This document shows positions 15,865 to 26,592 of a DNA stretch of 64,000 nucleotides, piece by piece. The notes under the pieces were generated by a model. The model made no database searches and was not told the DNA's origin. It saw nothing but the letters and a program-made list of their open reading frames with translations. The first letter of the stretch is position 1, and every line of letters begins with the position of its first letter. The position numbers were made by a program, and so were the translations under genes. Source of the stretch: an uncultured Nitrososphaerota archaeon (GTDB lineage Archaea > Thermoproteota > Nitrososphaeria > Nitrososphaerales > CADDZS01); the NCBI GenBank assembly GCA_963799845.1, contig CAWCYI010000006.1, forward strand, positions 640,001 to 704,000, read 5' to 3'.

Positions 15865-16491
15865 TTGATGATCCCGATTCCTAATCATGCCGCTCAAATC
15901 AAAGTAGATGCCGCCATAATGCAAGAGAGAGAAGGTCTAATAAATCGCGGACTGGCAGCTCGCAGCGACGTCCAGAAGGCGGTCTTGTCCATAACCGAAT
16001 ACAGGTTTACAACAGTAGACGGCCAACTGATAGTTGTTGCAGCCGATGACAAATTCAAAGTCATACTGGGAAGCTATCCAAGTTACAGCCCAAGATCAGG
16101 TCTCATTTTCAAAGTTGATTCTGGAAGGGAGACCGATGAGAGTCTGGTTGTGGACGTTATTTCGAGAGAGTTAAGGACGATCTTGGGTAGGGCAACAGCC
16201 ATCAGAGGAAAAAAAGTTGTAGAGTACTGTGGACAAACCTCCCTTGACTCGGACCAGATGATGACGACTATCACTGTGGCTCTGAAGCAAGAGGCGGGAA
16301 TAACTCGCGAAGAGGTAAAGAAAGTATCACGGATGCGAAGGTTCATGTCAAGACTTGGATTCAAGAGTACGCCCTCTTCCGAAGCTTCCAGAATCACTGA
16401 TTACAATTCGGCTGCAAAAACTGGAACAAGCATCGGTGATTTGACTCTTCAGGAAACATATCATCGGCAATTAGATGCATTATTACCCTAG
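15865..16491 (+). CDS. Hypothetical protein
   Basis: 208-aa ORF with no recognised motif. Confidence 0.5.
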   Translation: MMIPIPNHAAQIKVDAAIMQEREGLINRGLAARSDVQKAVLSITEYRFTTVDGQLIVVAADDKFKVILGSYPSYSPRSGLIFKVDSGRETDESLVVDVISRELRTILGRATAIRGKKVVEYCGQTSLDSDQMMTTITVALKQEAGITREEVKKVSRMRRFMSRLGFKSTPSSEASRITDYNSAAKTGTSIGDLTLQETYHRQLDALLP

Positions 16492-16607
16492 TTTGTATAG
16501 GGCGACTTTCTAGTCAGAACCACGAATACCTAAGACAGAAGATTCATGCCAAGAAGGTCGGAGTCGAAAATTGGATTGTGGACTGAATCCTTAGCTAGCC
16601 CCAATTT

Positions 16608-18302
16608 CTAACATCCAAAGTAGTCAGTCTGAGTTGTCGATGAGTCAGTCGCTGTTGAAGTGGTTGTTGAAGCGCAGCTATTTGTAAAAGTTGTAGCTGT
16701 CACGGTAGTTGCAGTTACAGTTGTTTCGTAAGTAGTTGTGGTTCCCCCATCAACTGTCTGATAAGTGGTAACTGATCCGCCATTAATTGTAGAAGTAGTA
16801 GTTGTACTATCAGTTTCAGTCGAGGTAGTTGTTGTGGTGGTTGTCTGAGTGTAAGTTGTAGTAACAGTTGTAGAATCTGTTTCCGTTGACGTTGAACTTG
16901 TAGTCGTCGCAAATGTCTGGGTAGTAGTCGAGGTCACAGCAGTTTGATCCGTTTCTGTCGATGTTGTAGTAGCAGGAACTGTCGATGTTGAAGTTGTGGT
17001 TATGGTGGTTGGATCCGTTTCCGTAGAAGTTGTGGTCGTAGGAATCGTAGTTGTAGATATGGTCGTATCTGTTGTTGTGGTGTTGTGTATATGAGTCGAC
17101 GTGGTGGTTGTAACGGTCGGAACTGTTATCGTTGTCGTCACACTTGTAAAGACATAATCAGTACCTGTCGATATAGTTGTAGTTGGAATGGTTTGGGTAG
17201 AGGTCGAAGTTATCGTGGCCTGATCCGTCTCTGTGTTTGTTATCGTAGTTTGATCTGTTTCTGTAGATGTCGTTGTAGTGGGAAATGTAGAAGTTGAAGT
17301 GATAGTCTTTGGAACGATTATCGTTGTTGTGCTAGTCGTAGAAGCCGTAGCGGTTGAAGTCGATGTCGTAATTGCTGGAATCGTCTGAGTAGAAGTCGAA
17401 GATACGGTGGTCTGAATTGTGTCCGTGGAAGTTGTCGTAGCAGGGATAGTCGTTGTAGAAGTTGTTGTAACGGGAATAGTGGTCGTAGAAGTTGTAGGAA
17501 TGGTCACGGTTGACGTTATCGTAGCAGGAATTGTCGTTGTAGATGTTGTTGAAGCGGAAATCGTCGCTGTAGACGTTGTGGTTGCAGGAATAGTATCTGT
17601 AGAGGTAGTAGTTGCCGCAACGGTTTGAGTGGATGTTGTAGACACCGGGATAGTAGTCGTTGAAGTTGTGGTTGCCGGAACGGTTGATGTTGATGTTTTG
17701 GTCGTAGGAATTGTGACTGTAGAGGTTACCGTTACTGGTATTGTTGTGGTCGAAGTCGTTGGCACTACTGAAGTCGAAGTAACTGTTGTGGTTGTCGAAG
17801 TTGGAATCGTAGTAGTCGAAGTAACTGGAATTGTTGTCGTGTACGTTGTGGCTGTTGCTACAGTTGAAGTTTCCGGATCCATGGAAGTTGAAGTAACTGT
17901 TTGAGTTGCAGTGGTTGAATCGGTCACAAGAGTCGAATCAGTCACTGTTGTCGTATCTGTGTCTGTAACGTGAGAGGTAGAGGTTACAGTCGTTGGATCG
18001 GTCAGAGTAGTATCGAAGGTTGATGTACTAGTCGTTCCGGTCATACTGGTCACGGTACTCGAGAAGGTCAGCGTAGTACTCGATATGAAACAACATGCAG
18101 TCGAGGTCGAAGTCGTAGTTTCAGTTTTACAGCAAGTCGTCTTCGTCGATGTTACCGTTTTGGTTGTTGTCTTAGTGGTCGTTTTTGCGGCTGTTGTTGC
18201 CGCTGGAGCTTGGCTCTGCGAAAAGGCCGAGGAAGAAACGGCCGTGAAAGCTACAAGGATAACCAAAAAGACCAGAGCCATTAAAGCGAATTTTCGAATC
18301 AA
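16608..18302 (-). CDS. Secreted Thr-rich repeat protein
   Basis: Signal peptide; about half Thr; (A/V)TTTSTxTIP repeats; CC pairs near the N-terminus and a C-terminal Cys. Confidence 0.85.
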   Translation of the reverse strand: MIRKFALMALVFLVILVAFTAVSSSAFSQSQAPAATTAAKTTTKTTTKTVTSTKTTCCKTETTTSTSTACCFISSTTLTFSSTVTSMTGTTSTSTFDTTLTDPTTVTSTSHVTDTDTTTVTDSTLVTDSTTATQTVTSTSMDPETSTVATATTYTTTIPVTSTTTIPTSTTTTVTSTSVVPTTSTTTIPVTVTSTVTIPTTKTSTSTVPATTTSTTTIPVSTTSTQTVAATTTSTDTIPATTTSTATISASTTSTTTIPATITSTVTIPTTSTTTIPVTTTSTTTIPATTTSTDTIQTTVSSTSTQTIPAITTSTSTATASTTSTTTIIVPKTITSTSTFPTTTTSTETDQTTITNTETDQATITSTSTQTIPTTTISTGTDYVFTSVTTTITVPTVTTTTSTHIHNTTTTDTTISTTTIPTTTTSTETDPTTITTTSTSTVPATTTSTETDQTAVTSTTTQTFATTTSSTSTETDSTTVTTTYTQTTTTTTTSTETDSTTTTSTINGGSVTTYQTVDGGTTTTYETTVTATTVTATTFTNSCASTTTSTATDSSTTQTDYFGC

Positions 18303-18427: not shown

Positions 18428-19177
18428 TTATGGGCAATTCACCTGAGTTTGTGTCGTCGTCGCACCGGTGATATCGCTTTCCGTACATGTTAGCGTGATC
18501 GTGGCGCCTGTCGTGATTCCGGTGACTGTAATTGTCTTTGTCACTTTTGTCGCTGTCGAAACCGTGGCAGTTGTTCTTTCGGTCTGCGTCGTAAGCGCAG
18601 TTTGTGTCGTGGACGCGGTTAAGGTACGAGTTGTGCGATCCGTTTGGGTTGTCTGAATAGTATCTGTGAGAGTCGTCGGAAAAGTGCTCGTTATCGTCTC
18701 GATTGTGGTCTCTGTGATCAGAACCGTGCCGGAAGTTAGTACAGTAGTTGTCTGCTCTTCAGTTTGATAAATTATTTCACTCATAACCGAGGTCGTAAAT
18801 GATGTCAGGGTCTGGGTCGCCGAACCGTTAGTCACGGTCGTGTAGATAGGAATCGTGAGCGTCGAATTCACGTTTGAAGTCGTTACCGTATAAGAAGTGA
18901 CTAGAGCTGTGCTGGTCCCGTTGATGAGCGTCGTTGTGAAATGATTGGTCTGCGTCACTGTTTCTGGTATCGTGGTCGTGGTGTTGACGTAGTTCGTAAT
19001 GTTTGTTTCGTCGGCATTTGTCGTCTGATTACCGGGTTGCGTCGTCACAGTGTAGGCTAGTGATGAAAAAGAGGACGAATTGAACGGGAATAAGGTCCTC
19101 TGGACTCCTATCACCCCAATTGAGATGGTCAAGATGATGGCTATGGAAATCACTGTGAGTATTGCTGATCTTTGCAT
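18428..19177 (-). CDS. Secreted or N-anchored Thr-rich protein
   Basis: N-terminal hydrophobic helix, several NxT/S sequons, Thr-rich body, two Cys near the C-terminus. Confidence 0.8.
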   Translation of the reverse strand: MQRSAILTVISIAIILTISIGVIGVQRTLFPFNSSSFSSLAYTVTTQPGNQTTNADETNITNYVNTTTTIPETVTQTNHFTTTLINGTSTALVTSYTVTTSNVNSTLTIPIYTTVTNGSATQTLTSFTTSVMSEIIYQTEEQTTTVLTSGTVLITETTIETITSTFPTTLTDTIQTTQTDRTTRTLTASTTQTALTTQTERTTATVSTATKVTKTITVTGITTGATITLTCTESDITGATTTQTQVNCP

Positions 19178-19402: not shown

Positions 19403-20749
19403 ATGACGTTAGCGAAAGAGTTTAGCATTTACGGCGAAGATTACGGTACCTCGGAATTCAAGTTTGGCGTTGCTACGCTCGGGAATACGCCCGATGCCAT
19501 TGACTCCCGTGGATATTTCCCTGATATGAGAAGCGCTCTGCTGAACTTGAGTTCTCGTTCAGCAAAGACCATGTCGTCAGGGAGAAACAATCAGATGTTG
19601 GTTGTTGGACCCACCGTAGCACAACACCTGGAGGCTCGGCGTGACATCGCGGAGCGGATGGTTTACCCCATGCGGAACGGCGAAATCGAGTCAGACGATG
19701 AGAGAGCTTGGTTAGTGGTCAAAGAAATTACGCGTTATGGTCTGCTGAGGCACGCACCAGAGAAGGCGGTCGCGCCCGAGTTCAACGGCTTCAAATGCGT
19801 CGGTGCACTGTCTGCGACTGCTCCACGCTACATGTACGACAGGCTCATAGGGATTCATCGGGAGATCAACAATGAAGAAAACAGAACGCTCACAAGGGTC
19901 CTGTCCATCATACCTCAGCCTCTTGCAGTAGCTATCTCTCAGAAACGACTAGCGTGCACGGTTCTGGAGGGAGGACACGGTAACACTCAGGTCGCTCCCA
20001 TAAGCAGCGGAGTGATTTTCAGTGCGTTAACGACGCTCAATAGAGGGGGCAGCGACTGCGACCTGATCGCGGCCGAGATATTGAAGGATGCAGGCTATTC
20101 TGATCTCGCCCGCGAACCCAAACTCGTCAAGGTATTCAAGGAATCCACGGGTCTTATCCCGAAGAACTTGGACAAGGTGATGCAAGAAAAGCAGACCACC
20201 TTGTTTGAGACAACGTTCAAGATTCCGTCGACAAAGATCTCCATAAGTTTGGGCAAGAACAGCTGGCAGCGTTTTTTGATGGGAGAGTATTTCTTCAATC
20301 CGAACCATGAGATCTTTGCCTCTTATTACAGGAGAGGATTCCCGAGGCCGGCGGATACGTACAGCGAGGGAAGAGCTGTTCTTGGAACCACCGATCTGGC
20401 TGATGTCATCATCCAGTCCGTCCAAAAATGCAGTTTTGAAATTCAACCCGCACTCTATCAGAACATAATTCTGTCTGGCGGTAATTTTGCATGGCAGGTG
20501 CCTCCGAACCTGACGAATTACGCTGTCAACTCGCCCGCCAAGCTCAAGAAGATGCTCGAAGAAAAGGGAATCGCCGGAAGCACGGTCGAGCTCACGAAAA
20601 ATCCGGTCTACAATGTGTGGCAGGGATGCATTGCTTACGGGCTCTACACTCCTGAAAATTATGAATGGGACTGGGATTCGCGGGAAGGGTGGCTACAGCT
20701 CGTTGCGAGTGCGGAGCTGGGCGAACAGAGCATCAGTGCCGAAATTTAG
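19403..20749 (+). CDS. Crenactin (archaeal actin homologue)
   Basis: GEDYGTS.FKFG, YPMRNG...DDERAW, ALSATAP.YMY, IIPQPLAVAI, LEGGHGNTQVAPIS, NRGG, ILKD.GYSD.ARE, ILSGG.F.W.VP, C-terminal W..D.REGW; collinear with Thermoproteales crenactin as recalled. Confidence 0.93.
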   Translation: MTLAKEFSIYGEDYGTSEFKFGVATLGNTPDAIDSRGYFPDMRSALLNLSSRSAKTMSSGRNNQMLVVGPTVAQHLEARRDIAERMVYPMRNGEIESDDERAWLVVKEITRYGLLRHAPEKAVAPEFNGFKCVGALSATAPRYMYDRLIGIHREINNEENRTLTRVLSIIPQPLAVAISQKRLACTVLEGGHGNTQVAPISSGVIFSALTTLNRGGSDCDLIAAEILKDAGYSDLAREPKLVKVFKESTGLIPKNLDKVMQEKQTTLFETTFKIPSTKISISLGKNSWQRFLMGEYFFNPNHEIFASYYRRGFPRPADTYSEGRAVLGTTDLADVIIQSVQKCSFEIQPALYQNIILSGGNFAWQVPPNLTNYAVNSPAKLKKMLEEKGIAGSTVELTKNPVYNVWQGCIAYGLYTPENYEWDWDSREGWLQLVASAELGEQSISAEI

Positions 20750-20793
20750 CGAATAAAAAAATAGAGATATCCTTGCGCTAAAGATTCTGCGGG

Positions 20794-22059
20794 ATGTAAC
20801 CGGAAACGTCATCTGATGACGAGAACGCTCCCGAAGATGGAGCAACTATCCCAAGAGGAAGCGATGACGCTCCCATTCCTGCCGAGCGAACTATCGCTTC
20901 AGAGAGGAGATGGAGTAACCTCTCCTTTCCTCTGACGATAGTATTTGGCGTCTCGTTCATCTTTTTCCTGTATACGGCGAGTTATTCATGGTATGTGGGA
21001 GGGGGGGCTATGACTCAGAGCGTGCCCTGGCTGTATTCATCGGTTGCGATCTCGGGAGCAAGCCTCTTCGCGCTGAGCAATCTCTACATTTCCAGAAAAC
21101 TCCCGAAAATTACGTCTCTTCAAAGGTTTTTGCTATCATTCTTCGACCTAGGGGCATACTTTTGCCTTGTAGCGCTGGTCGTGTGGGGTTTGCTCTTTCC
21201 GATCCTGCGTCCGATCACCGATCCGAATTTTCAACTTTACTTACTTGGGCAAAAAAGTCTCGCGATGGATCTGTACACGGGGTTGGTCCTTTGCTCGATC
21301 GTGATCGTTTTCCGCATTGCGCTTCAGCTGCTAATTGCTCGTTCCAGCACAATCATGATTGTATCCCCTTCAAAGCCGCAATTCGGAAACACAATTCCGG
21401 TTAGAGATTCCTCGACGGATGGCGGTTCTCTTGAAAGCAAGATCTCATCAATCCACATGGAGATAACAAGGTTGAGAGAGGAAATCGCGTCGCTAAGTGC
21501 TCCGGGTACTGCTCTGAGGCTTACCAATCTGATGGGGGCGGTTGAATCGCCCGCGAATAACCGAGAATCGCCGGTTTCACTGGTAGACGAGATGGAAACG
21601 CTACCGTCAAGTCTAGCAGAAACCTTCGTGCAAAACCTTCCAACCAGAGATTCGGTTTCTCAAGAAACTGGAATGGAAGAAATGACAAACGGTGAGGTCA
21701 TCCAATCCGAGGCAAACTTTTCTCCAGAGTATTTTGCAAGTGCTGGAGGTCCACAGATTCCCGATTCTGCCAGGGATAATCCCTGGGCCTCGGTGCTTTC
21801 TAGAAGACAGCCGACGGCCCAGTCGAAGCCCATTCAGAAAAGAAGGGCAATCAAAAAGTCAAAGAAAAGGGTGCAAAAAGAAAAGCCTGGAGAAGATTCT
21901 CCGCCCATTCCTGTAGGAGTCGTGAAACTGGAACCGGGATCATCATCCCCGGTATCCGACGACGCACGCGACAGCCTGTCCTACTTCGCAATAATTTCTT
22001 CTGACAAAGATACTAGAGCCTTAGTCCGTCGCGTCGTGTTAGTTATCTGTAATACTTGA
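20794..22059 (+). CDS. Four-TM membrane protein with coiled coil and arcadin-2-like helix; ATG 20794 is followed by an in-frame TAA (possible error), computed ORF starts at 20995
   Basis: Frame is open 20800-22056 and adds a TM (NLSFPLTIVFGVSFIFFLY); coiled coil LESKISSIHMEITRLREEIASL; IPDSARDNPWASVLSRR. Confidence 0.7.
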
Positions 22060-23601: not shown

Positions 23602-25110
23602 ATGCATATGAATTTTCCAAAAAATGGCAACAGGTCAATTTCGACTGTTGTGGCTGTAGTCATCGTTATAGTCATCCTGATAATCGCAGGTGCAGGCGCT
23701 TACCTTGCCCTGGGCTCCAAGAGCTCCACCACGACGACAACGAGTTCTTCGTCGACTTCTTCCACTTCTAGCTCATCCACCACCTCTTCGTCGAGTTCCA
23801 GCTCGGCGCCAGCGGTTAACTCTACAATTCAGATTGTTTTCGGCGCTAGTCTTTCGCTTACCGGAGGGGCGCAACCTTTTGGGTTGGAAGATAACTGGAC
23901 GCTAAACCAAGCCGTCAATTACGTCAACAGTCTTGGCGGGATTCCTCTGCAGAACGGTACGCACGCGATGATTAAGCTAGTCGTGTTAGACGACCAGTCT
24001 AGCGACACGACATCAATCAACAACTACAACACCTTGGTCACGACGGATCATGCCGTAGTCTTGATGGGACAGCTCGGCACAATAGATGATTTGATCGCCG
24101 GGAATTTTGCACAGCAGCACCAGATTCCTCTGATCGGACCTTACTACCTGTCAGCTGCAAAGCAGTGCACGCCCGAACCAACCTGCGTTAACTCATGGGT
24201 CTTTGGAACTTTCCACAACGAAACTAACGAGGCTCATGTTTTCTTCAACTGGTTCAAGACCGTCGATCCTTCAACAAGCACTCACAACGTCACTATAGCC
24301 TTCTTTGAAGAGACTGACGACTCTGCTCAGGCAAACTATGCCGCGGGCAAGGCTTACGCTGAACAGCTGGGCTACACTGTTTGCACTTGTTCTGACACAA
24401 CCTTCCAGGCTGGCAGCTCCTCAGAGATGCAGAGCTTCCTCACAGCTGCAAAAACTGCGGGAGCCGAAGCAGTCTTCGGTCTGCCTTCGCCGGGAGACGC
24501 TGCACTAATGATTAACACTGCAAAGCAGATCGGATACCAGCCATTAGCGTGGCTCCTGACAAGGGGAACGGCAGTTGCCCCGTTTGCTGTTCCGCAGATC
24601 GGCGGAATCGGTACGCTTGCAAGTGGTGTAATGTCTGCGTTCCCGTGGGCGCCGGGACTTCCCTACTCTGCGGACATCCTCGGTCACAATCTCAGCAACC
24701 CCACAATAGTCAACGAGTACATGGCCGCTAACGGCGGACAACTACCTACTCTTGAGGGCGTCTATTATTCCGGATTTGCCGTAGCTGTCGACGCGATCTC
24801 GCAGGCGAGCAATCTCTCGAATGTTGCAATCAGAGAGGCGCTGAGGACCCACACATACCAGACTTTCATGGGACCCATGAGTTTCAGTCCCGGCGGGCAG
24901 TGGGTGCAATCTGACCAGTACATGTTGCTTCAGCAGTGGCAGCTGGTTTCAGTCAACGGGGCGATGACTCCGGAGCTAAAGATACTGGAGCCGACAAATG
25001 TGAACACCACGAGCTTCATCATCTATCCGTTCACCTTCGCAAATCAGACTGAAATGCTGTGGCCTCCGAGCGGTGAATCCACCATGATCACTGCCACAAG
25101 CAGCGGCTAG
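23602..25110 (+). CDS. ABC transporter substrate-binding protein (LivJ/HAAT type), N-terminally anchored
   Basis: N-terminal class-III-like signal/TM, Ser/Thr linker, FGASLSLTG, LVVLDDQS. Confidence 0.88.
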   Translation: MHMNFPKNGNRSISTVVAVVIVIVILIIAGAGAYLALGSKSSTTTTTSSSSTSSTSSSSTTSSSSSSSAPAVNSTIQIVFGASLSLTGGAQPFGLEDNWTLNQAVNYVNSLGGIPLQNGTHAMIKLVVLDDQSSDTTSINNYNTLVTTDHAVVLMGQLGTIDDLIAGNFAQQHQIPLIGPYYLSAAKQCTPEPTCVNSWVFGTFHNETNEAHVFFNWFKTVDPSTSTHNVTIAFFEETDDSAQANYAAGKAYAEQLGYTVCTCSDTTFQAGSSSEMQSFLTAAKTAGAEAVFGLPSPGDAALMINTAKQIGYQPLAWLLTRGTAVAPFAVPQIGGIGTLASGVMSAFPWAPGLPYSADILGHNLSNPTIVNEYMAANGGQLPTLEGVYYSGFAVAVDAISQASNLSNVAIREALRTHTYQTFMGPMSFSPGGQWVQSDQYMLLQQWQLVSVNGAMTPELKILEPTNVNTTSFIIYPFTFANQTEMLWPPSGESTMITATSSG

Positions 25111-25169
25111 CACGAAAACTTGGATGTGCCACCGGAAGCAAGCTGGTGCATCCTTCTTCCTATTTTTCC

Positions 25170-26592
25170 CTAGTCTGAATAAGAAGGCTTTCTCAAGTGA
25201 TGATCTGTTGTTCGCTGGAATGCATCTCCGACATTGAAGACAACGTTCTCCCGCCAGTGGGATCCTATAATCTGCATTCCAACCGGCATTCCGTCGCTGA
25301 ATCCCGCCGGGATCGAGAGAGCTGGCAGTCCGAGAAGATTGAACGGATATGTGTTCTCCGTGAGCACCTGGAACGCTGGATACTTTTTTCCGCCGATTCG
25401 AATTGTGTCCTGATCGATTCCAGGGGCGACCGAAGGATTTGTGGGAACGAGTAGGGCGTCTACTTCGCTCAATTTCTTCGCTACTTTTTGCATGATGATC
25501 GTCCTCGCGCGTTGAGCCTTCAGATACTGGGTGGCGAGGACTGTATGCCCTAATTGCACGTACCCGAGCAGGACTTTGCCGTACATCTCCTTTTTTGTGC
25601 GAAGCCAATCCTCGTGATATGCGGCCACCTCGGGCAGCGCTATTGCAAAGATTGTGGGCGTCACGAGTCCTACATCGGGCAGCGTGACATCCACGAGCTT
25701 GCCCGAGCTCTGAAAAAACGTTCACACTTTCTCGAAACCTCACGGTTACTCCTTCATCTGAGTCGCGAATCGGGTTGACAAAGATTCCGATTTTGAGGCC
25801 CTCAAGACTAGGTTCATCGGTGAATACGTATTTTTTTGGATGCGGTGAGCCGAGTGTCGATGAATCTCGATCGTCGAGACCCTGAGAAACTTCGAGGAGC
25901 AACGCCGCATCCCGTACAGTTCTCGTCATGAAGCCGACATGGTCTAGAGACCAGCACATCGAAATTACCCCGGACCTTCCCACGCGTCCGTAAGTGGGTT
26001 TCAGTCCAGTTAGATTGCAAAACGAAGCCGGGATTCTGACAGATCCTCCCGTGTCACTCCCCGTCGAAGCACAGGCTTCTCCGGCAGCGACCGCAGCGGC
26101 CGAACCGCCGCTCGATCCGCCCGGAATCCTCGTTAGGTCCCAGGGGTTGAGTGTCCTACCATAATGAGGATTGTTTGTGGCGATTCCGAAAGCGGCGAGC
26201 TCGTCCAGATTTGTTTTCCCAATAAAGGCCGCGCCCTCTTCTCTCATCTTTGAGATAAAGCCGGCATCTTTCTCCGAGACGTTGTCCTGAAGGATTTTCG
26301 AGCCTCCGGTACACGGCAAACGGACGACGTCGGTATTATCCTTCACGGCAAGGAAGGTGCCGGTTAGCGATCGCGCAGACCCATTCTTGATTTGGCTCGT
26401 GGAAATTCTTGCGACGTCTCGCAGACTCTTTTCATCGACCAGATGAATGTACGCATGGATTTTTTCCTCCTTTTGCCTGATGTTGTCGAGTATCGAATCC
26501 AAGAGGTCTTCCGGTTCGTAGTCTCCGGCACGAAACCCGCGGCGCAGTGACGAGATCGATTCGAATGCAAGGTCTGATTTCGTGACTACCAA
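25170..26592 (-). CDS. Amidase-signature family enzyme; apparent -1 indel at ~25702
   Basis: LAVKDN, GKTNLDE, PGGSSGGSAAAVA, GSDTGGSVRIPA; C-terminal ORF carries PFNLLGLPALSIPAG..MPVGMQ. Confidence 0.9.

Follow-up and report, generated by a model that had tools for sequence, protein, structure and literature searches.

Crenactin is, to our knowledge, the closest relative of actin outside the Asgard archaea and the eukaryotes, and we know of a single characterised regulator of it, arcadin-2. Here we describe a crenactin gene and the gene that follows it in a 64,000-nucleotide stretch of DNA (hereafter the window; contig CAWCYI010000006.1, positions 640,001 to 704,000) from an uncultured Nitrososphaerota archaeon. 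The second gene encodes a membrane protein whose predicted cytoplasmic tail carries a short motif resembling the crenactin-binding helix of arcadin-2. We think it likely that the two genes constitute a module in which the membrane-anchored protein holds crenactin at the membrane by means of this arcadin-2-type helix.

According to Izore et al. 2016 (PMC5173319), the last 17 residues of arcadin-2 (R187-R203) bind the hydrophobic groove of crenactin between subdomains IA and IIA, the tryptophan of this tail makes the key groove contacts and the full protein binds with a dissociation constant of 31 nM. The same text describes the tail as depolymerising filaments of crenactin through competition with the D-loop.

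As had been predicted, the first of the two genes encodes a complete crenactin, its product matching the NCBIfam model NF053560 from end to end (profile positions 5-421 of 422; 475 bits, E = 1.8e-142). The score lies below the equivalog cut-off (475 vs 630 bits) and is the lowest for any full-length copy in the 401 genomes of the phylum that were searched, of which 139 contain a crenactin match and 40 a match above the cut-off. The Pfam Actin model matches the protein with E = 3e-12, and its best solved relative is the crenactin of P. calidifontis (4cj7/5ly3/5mw1, E = 8.8e-85; eukaryotic actins are matched at about 1e-8). The nucleotide-binding blocks are invariant in a six-row alignment. Judged by its sequence, the window crenactin is a divergent member of the crenactin subfamily.

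The motif IPDSARDNPWASVLSRR lies exactly where it had been reported in the second gene, and it was compared with arcadin-2 sequences taken from genomes. As a positive control, the gene following crenactin at locus L024 scores 315.9 bits on the arcadin-2 model NF053561 (cut-off 290), so the comparison set truly represents arcadin-2. At the 30 best-scoring crenactin loci the following gene encodes about 200-250 residues, with endings such as ...VLDNEWVRILRSRGR or ...ELPDFLSNNPWIEVLRRRGGS. When the phylum search was sampled at one locus for each genus and family (40 loci, the actin being recognised by pattern in 39), a motif-bearing neighbour on the same strand was present at 34 of the 39, mostly in the form LPSF..DNPW..ILS.RG and 4-13 residues from the C-terminal end. 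When the window tail is aligned with 33 others, the Asn and Trp are invariant across all 34, two Pro and one Leu are conserved in at least 90% and the core is gapless; the window reads IP-DSAR-DNPW-ASVL-SRR vs the typical LP-SFLK-DNPW-LEIL-SRR. The DNPW form of other lineages is the commoner one and is closer still to the window motif than are endings of the VLDNEWVRILRSRGR type. The resemblance to the arcadin-2 helix that the original prediction had pointed out is thus borne out by a gapless alignment with genome-derived arcadin-2 tails that share DNPW.

The match is also specific at the scale of the genome. A profile built from 22 classical arcadin-2 tails only, run with filters off against the 28,344 six-frame open reading frames (ORFs) of at least 60 residues in the whole genome, returned the membrane-protein ORF as its sole match (E = 7.9e-4, 20.0 bits; the next best has E = 1.3). 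The regular expression [DEN]N[PE]W..[ILVM][ILVM] finds two six-frame ORFs of at least 80 residues in the 4.6-Mb genome, one of which is the ORF adjacent to crenactin. Neither of these two tests, by a profile of classical tails alone and by a plain regular expression, is circular. When the membrane-protein family was aligned by hhalign with 19 classical arcadin-2 proteins, the probability was 94.7% (E = 6.3e-8) over 23 columns that comprise the motif only. Because the motif is shared and NF053561 does not match, the membrane-protein ORF possesses the binding module of arcadin-2 and is not a member of the arcadin-2 family.

Conservation of the motif and of the gene pair, on which the original prediction had staked its case, was found at both levels. 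In two genomes of the same genus (G004 and G002) the same gene directly follows crenactin and carries LPDSARDNPWASILS (G004) or LPDSAKDNPWSFVLS (G002), and the linker of these orthologues diverges while the motif is kept. A profile of the membrane-protein family found 22 proteins among 5.8 billion clusters, all of them unnamed and devoid of Pfam domains; each of the 20 members inspected has the motif, set amid divergent flanks. The distance from the motif to the end is 7-19 residues in most members, and a long extension beyond the motif occurs only in the window's subgroup. Among 44 crenactin loci (some of them duplicates under other identifiers), 37 have a motif-bearing neighbour, which is a multi-transmembrane protein in 12, KaiC-like in 2 and classical in 23; the seven without one include short contigs. 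The 12 multi-transmembrane neighbours all follow crenactin and come from Nitrososphaerota/Thaumarchaeota metagenome-assembled genomes, Candidatus Methanomethylicus oleisabuli and M. mesodigestus; they include the loci of G004, G002 and G256.

In a quick maximum-likelihood tree of 94 distinct crenactins, from which same-locus duplicates, two intein-bearing copies and partial copies were excluded, 64 rows were labelled as having a classical neighbour, 10 a transmembrane (TM) one, 2 a KaiC-type one and 18 none; one TM label (L060) is false, that neighbour being a classical arcadin-2. All nine true TM rows and both KaiC rows fall, together with one short-contig row, in a single 12-row clade (Shimodaira-Hasegawa-like approximate likelihood-ratio support 99), which includes the window crenactin and is nested among crenactins having classical arcadin-2 neighbours. 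Non-classical partners therefore accompany a single crenactin lineage, and a clustering of architectures as strong as this was equalled in 0 of 500 shuffles. This distribution bears on the idea that the motif is a coincidental match, or serves another partner, and that the membrane protein is unconnected with crenactin. The motif is indeed short, its score with the classical-tail profile is modest (20 bits) and no family model names the membrane protein. Set against this, the ORF singled out from the 28,344 adjoins crenactin, the motif is conserved against diverging flanks, the same motif stands beside crenactin on three other scaffolds and the clustering in the tree was not reproduced by shuffling. 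We regard such a coincidence as very improbable.

Other features of the crenactin loci were seen in the same comparison. Seven high-scoring Thermoproteales-like loci (L011, L012, L014, L015, L016, L062 and L063) have no same-strand motif gene within 600 nucleotides, and they form small clades of their own in the tree. In two related Thaumarchaeota-type metagenome-assembled genomes (L118:6001-6720 and L119:3799-6762) the crenactin gene is split by an intein: the 988-residue frame of L119 has Intein_splicing (3.4e-17) and LAGLIDADG_3 (1.4e-09) matches between its actin parts, and the tblastn alignments of these copies cover residues 186-433 (L119) and 194-433 (L118).

A second type of non-classical partner occurs in two sister genera of the same GTDB family, G008 (L004/L056) and G010 (L005/L074), whose actins are 57-58% identical to that of the window. 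Here the gene upstream of crenactin encodes an ATPase of about 610-620 residues with a KaiC domain (Pfam, 4.1e-45), a distinct N-terminal domain with a C..C pair and a tail that reads LPNAVKDNPWTKIISERNE or AAANENPWASIISSREV. The motif is kept by 10 of the 11 database relatives of this N-terminal domain, and the eleventh is labelled partial. In the related genome G011 (L006) the crenactin is truncated to a 262-residue frame (residues 37-256), and the adjoining KaiC-type gene is in fragments, with a degenerate tail ending ...TSATDGNPGQE; from these sequences the two partners look as if they were broken together. Both TM-type and KaiC-type loci have, as a conserved neighbour of crenactin, a protein with a vWA domain and in many cases a coiled coil at its C-terminal end (Table 1), and no vWA gene was found beside crenactin in the window's genus. 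When the KaiC-type and vWA proteins from G008 and G010 served as tblastn queries, the window's genome returned only paralogous KaiC domains at 23-30% identity and nothing for vWA, so that, as far as these queries reach, the genome has no orthologue of either partner.

Searched against 1.84 billion representative proteins, the profile of the 34 tails gave 413 matches at E up to 0.001. All of the best 150 of the 413 contain the motif by regular expression, 143 of them in one copy and 7 in two or three. Within the same 150, at least two TM segments are found in 9 (by a crude hydropathy filter, which also made the false TM call on L060), a P-loop in 2 and a motif more than 40 residues from the C-terminal end in only 5. 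The proteins with two or three tandem copies include P0034, P0035, P0036, P0038, P0039 and P0042; in four, the copies are preceded by a zinc ribbon, a coiled coil and a winged-helix-like segment, and one is a classical arcadin-2 with two copies. Tandem-motif proteins are possible crenactin nucleators. In P0124, P0127 and P0139 the motif is N-terminal and is followed by an unrelated region with a zinc-ribbon-like CPKCGRYG block; these may be mis-called starts that bridge two genes, or may represent a further scaffold. The range of scaffolds suggests that the binding helix, and not the arcadin-2 protein, is the conserved unit.

Binding in the cleft between subdomains 1 and 3, as proposed at the outset, is what structure prediction returns. 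The complex was modelled from the six-row crenactin alignment and a 34-row alignment of the 48-residue tail. Over three runs its interaction prediction score from aligned errors (ipSAE) was 0.86, 0.85 and 0.87, and none of three controls scored above 0.00; of 80 solved complexes 58 reach the mark for this score, as do 2 of 110 mismatched pairs. At least 67% of contacts are common to the runs, and the predicted local distance difference test (pLDDT) value of the partner is at least 59. The residue pairs with the lowest error join tail Trp32 and Leu36 to crenactin 177, 178, 181, 183, 411, 412, 415 and 416, and overall the modelled Trp, together with the Leu four residues on, contacts crenactin 177-183 and 407-417. 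Crenactin 177-183 aligns with actin 142-148, which we take to be part of the hydrophobic cleft (subdomains 1 and 3). Taken together with the alignments, the model makes binding of crenactin by the membrane protein through this motif well supported, as an inference from sequence and prediction. Of the three findings that had been named as grounds for rejecting the original prediction, namely loss of the motif in orthologues, absence of binding in the cleft and lack of synteny of the gene pair, none was made.

The layout of the membrane protein (Table 1) was derived from an AlphaFold2 model computed on an eight-row family alignment, with residues counted from 20905. The four TM helices originally read from the sequence correspond to predicted helices at residues 2-30, 39-65, 71-101 and 123-152, with block pLDDT of about 83-93 except for dips in the loops. 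Eight Nitrososphaerota-type membrane proteins can be aligned over their full length, and invariant among them are an Asp in TM3, an FPxL element and an RxxLQ element (R..Q) after TM4. Basic residues precede TM1, lie between TM2 and TM3 and follow TM4; by the positive-inside rule this arrangement would place both ends in the cytoplasm. The post-TM4 segment is predicted as one helix of 26 residues, and in the family alignment it appears as an aligned helical block with one invariant R. The linker that follows, rightly called long, acidic and disordered, has 13 D+E vs 3 K+R over 87 residues and a sequence that is not conserved in the family. A short helix (293-301) is modelled on the motif itself. 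The Lys-rich patch beyond it, which had likewise been pointed out, is kept in close relatives (P0002-P0005, P0010) and lies farther toward the C-terminal end in more distant ones. The membrane protein has no match in Pfam or in NCBIfam at E up to 1; a fold search of its model against the PDB gave 0 matches at E up to 0.001, and a search of the ESM Atlas with residues 1-200 gave no usable match.

Table 1. Positions of the features of the crenactin gene and of the membrane-protein gene in the window, with vWA genes at other crenactin loci.
Feature	Position	Strand	Basis
Crenactin-type actin, 448 residues	19403..20749	+	NF053560, PDB match, alignment, tree
Earlier proposed start, ATG then TAA, unusable	20794..20799	+	Sequence and translation
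ATC where close relatives have an ATG start; candidate non-canonical start	20893..20895	+	Alignment to relatives
Four predicted TM helices: 20908-20994, 21019-21099, 21115-21207, 21271-21360	20908..21360	+	AlphaFold2
First canonical start in frame (GTG); its use drops TM1	20995..20997	+	ORF reading
Amphipathic helix after TM4, possible coiled coil	21421..21498	+	AlphaFold2, residues 173-198, block pLDDT 64-85
Acidic disordered linker	21505..21750	+	AlphaFold2, residues 201-282, pLDDT under 50
Putative arcadin-2-type crenactin-binding motif, IPDSARDNPWASVLSRR	21757..21807	+	Alignment, profiles, complex model
Basic Lys/Arg-rich patch after the motif	21808..21897	+	Composition, 11 K+R in 30 residues
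1-nucleotide insertion in the assembly, CC vs C in read-derived contigs	21975..21976	+	2/2 covering contigs
Inferred true stop, TAA; C-terminus ...DDARDSCPTSQ	21992..21994	+	Read-derived contigs and relatives
vWA neighbours of crenactin at other loci	L004:2816-4036, L005:2799-3908, L083:5040-5936, L086:4776-5837, L081:2178-3224

Neither of the limits first assigned to the second gene holds. An ORF beginning 44 nucleotides after crenactin had been proposed, but the ATG at that point is followed directly by TAA at 20797, and the frame is open only from 20800. The first ATG, GTG or TTG in frame is the GTG at 20995, which lies beyond the first hydrophobic helix; TM1 is encoded in frame upstream of it, at about 20908-20994. 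Close relatives recovered by the profile search start MTSGKRWNNLIFPL (P0002), MAGKRWSVLNFPL or MPVERRSNLLFPL, and the window sequence IASERRWSNLSFPL aligns gaplessly with these starts, their Met falling on the ATC at 20893. ATC is a permitted start in translation table 11, and we regard it from this alignment as a candidate non-canonical start of the membrane gene. Contigs derived from public reads differ from the window at 0 positions over 20700-21359, so the assembly is not at fault, and the gene truly lacks a canonical start. A frameshift between the frame-2 ATG (20816) and TM1 was also considered; it is excluded by the gapless frame-1 alignment from 20893 and by the identical read-derived contigs. 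The original end at 22059 is likewise wrong. One letter at 21975 is missing in both of the read-derived contigs that cover it (runs X1 and X4), and with that letter removed the frame ends in ...DDARDSCPTSQ at the stop listed in Table 1. The relative P0021 has the same ending as the corrected ORF, and P0002 and P0019 also end in PTSQ. Because the insertion shifts the frame, the last 22 codons up to 22059 are an assembly artefact.

The state of the start raises the question of whether the membrane gene is inactive or decaying in this genome, the module being a remnant left after the start was lost. No ATG, GTG or TTG stands ahead of TM1 and the reads concur; the related genome G011 has a truncated crenactin beside a degenerate tail, and the gene is patchily present among genomes of the GTDB family. 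Against decay, correcting the assembly insertion leaves the frame open from end to end, neither TM1 nor any family-invariant residue is damaged, an allowed table-11 start sits exactly at the homologous start position and the adjoining crenactin is intact. We consider decay unlikely.

We propose that the likely module works as follows. The four TM helices would anchor the protein in the membrane, its N- and C-terminal ends both lying in the cytoplasm, and the short helix and the acidic disordered linker of about 90 residues would let the motif reach into the cytoplasm, where its Trp and the subsequent hydrophobic residues would enter the crenactin groove between subdomains IA and IIA. In a filament the same groove is filled by the D-loop of the next subunit and is free only on the terminal subunit; a tethered helix could therefore hold monomers, or that end of a filament, at the inner face of the membrane. 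The membrane protein would on this account be a membrane-anchored counterpart of arcadin-2.

The same binding could have another outcome, in which the membrane protein sequesters or depolymerises crenactin as arcadin-2 does in vitro. The only activity measured for the motif, in the accessible text of PMC5173319, is depolymerisation by competition with the D-loop, and the modelled contact site is that same groove. A stoichiometric sequesterer would, however, need to approach actin in abundance, which would be unusual for a polytopic membrane protein, and fusions of the motif to a membrane domain, to a KaiC ATPase and in tandem repeats are easier to reconcile with recruitment to a site or machine than with buffering in bulk. 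Sequestration or depolymerisation is in our estimate possible, with the odds against it. The partners to which the motif is repeatedly fused are ones with a location or an activity, and we therefore favour recruitment or capture of a filament end at the membrane over bulk sequestration; this is a judgement and not a result.

Several observations weigh against holding of crenactin by a membrane-anchored helix. The similarity to arcadin-2 is confined to the motif, and whereas the arcadin-2 motif is C-terminal, in the window and its nearest kin it is an internal one, about 60 residues short of the corrected end. The aromatic residue of LPSF/LPSY is replaced by Ser/Ala in the window (PDSA), a loss that, from the sequence, could weaken binding. 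The score of the complex model may reflect memory of the solved like complex 5LY3; since that complex is solved and our own alignments were used, passing the mark supports binding and does not demonstrate it. The membrane protein of the Methanomethylicus type can be aligned with the window family by its tail only (BLASTP and hhalign). Among the 13 genomes of the window's GTDB family (metagenome-assembled, 58-96% complete) crenactin is found in 6 and the membrane gene in only 4, one of them at a contig edge. The conserved polar residues of the TM domain hint at a role beyond anchoring. Finally, with no ATG, GTG or TTG ahead of TM1 in the window's genome, the gene may use a rare start codon, may produce, from the GTG at 20995 or an ATG at 21010, a form with three TM helices or may be in decay.

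The genome that contains the window comprises 4.6 Mb in 9 contigs and is 86.7% complete; contigs near-identical to the window are present in four soil-metagenome runs of one study, none of them listed as an RNA run. The flanks of the gene pair encode Thr-rich secreted proteins, an M20 peptidase and a solute-binding protein, and none of these flanking genes recurs beside crenactin in the other loci compared. Directly upstream of crenactin, on the opposite strand, are two low-complexity Thr/Ser-rich proteins of 564 and 249 residues (16608-18302 and 18428-19177, both on the minus strand) with N-terminal hydrophobic anchors. A Pfam scan of the 249-residue protein gave no match, and a strong GC-skew excursion (0.32) covers 16001-18000 within this region. 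An amidase-like gene is apparently split over two overlapping frames on the minus strand (24976-26592, 538 residues, and 25170-25694, 174 residues), the longer of which passes into Arg-rich nonsense. This may be another 1-nucleotide assembly error like that at 21975; if so, indels have perhaps lowered the completeness figure.

Searches for the arcadin-2, arcadin-3 and arcadin-4 families recognised none of these genes beside the window crenactin, in agreement with the original prediction. Neither the window's genome nor any of four related genomes has an arcadin-2 family match (NF053561) at E up to 0.01. In the same five genomes arcadin-3 (NF053562) has no match either, in a search that was silent in the controls too, and arcadin-4 (NF053563) gives only generic Rad50/SMC-like matches, far under the cut-off and elsewhere in the genome; the control search with NF053563 gives matches in 12 of 14 genomes.

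One clade of crenactins, which includes those of mesophilic soil Nitrososphaerota and of Methanomethylicus, thus appears to have its helix on membrane proteins or on a KaiC-type ATPase. This would explain why an arCOG survey, in the accessible text of PMC9723716, records no arcadins in crenactin-bearing Methanomethylicia. In the literature searched, which covered neither the supplement of Izore 2016 nor that of the Culexarchaeia paper, no membrane-bound or KaiC-linked motif of the arcadin-2 type is described, and the accessible parts of PMC9723716, PMC10936438 and PMC7617429 mention no membrane-bound arcadin-2. The proposed pair offers a concrete and testable link between actin and membrane in archaea, and a simple motif profile yields 413 candidate crenactin partners in public data.

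The closest described system is arcadin-2 itself (Rkd2, NF053561; Pyrobaculum calidifontis; 5LY3). Its gene, like that of the window's membrane protein, directly follows crenactin on the same strand, and both proteins begin with an N-terminal domain and a helical segment, continue with a linker that is not conserved and carry a short helix in which Asn and Trp are invariant and after which basic residues come; the predicted contact of the window motif is also in the hydrophobic groove. They differ in that the soluble alpha/beta N-terminal domain of arcadin-2 is replaced by four TM helices, in that the window protein has no NF053561 match and no detectable homology beyond the motif, and in that its motif is internal and lacks the LPSF aromatic residue. 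The locus also differs from the arcade cluster in that no arcadin-3 or arcadin-4 was found beside crenactin, with the reservation that the arcadin-3 search was silent in controls.

Coupling of an actin homologue to the envelope by an integral membrane protein is familiar from bacteria, where the cytoplasmic part of RodZ binds MreB. The window protein shares with RodZ this pairing of a membrane protein with an actin homologue and has no homology to it; RodZ is bitopic and binds MreB by a helix-turn-helix domain on another surface. For capture of a filament end with continued growth the model is ParR-ParM of plasmid R1, in which ParR permits insertional growth of ParM filaments. As predicted for the window's pair, a short adaptor helix belonging to an adaptor fixed to its cargo occupies the same groove, a parallel drawn in the accessible text of PMC5173319. 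The proteins themselves are not related, and DNA takes the place of the membrane as cargo.

The motif can also be compared with the WH2/thymosin-beta4-type motifs of eukaryotes. These are short helices of a portable kind; they bind actin in the groove between subdomains 1 and 3, are carried by many scaffolds and occur in tandem. The archaeal motif shows a WH2-like spread over at least four scaffolds, with two or three tandem copies in some. There is no sequence relationship, the thymosin helix has the reverse orientation (accessible text of PMC5173319) and nucleation by tandem copies is unproven for crenactin. More tentatively, and as an idea we hold to be rather improbable as a whole, the arcadin-2 helix might be a portable, WH2-like archaeal module, set on the soluble arcadin-2 core, on two unrelated polytopic membrane domains, on a KaiC/RAD55-like ATPase and on zinc-ribbon/winged-helix tandem proteins. 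The tandem forms might then nucleate filaments, and the membrane form, paired through the helix after TM4, might hold the groove-exposing end of a filament while subunits are added, much as ParR holds ParM. If this were true, it would mean that actin-driven force is exerted on a membrane in a non-Asgard archaeon.

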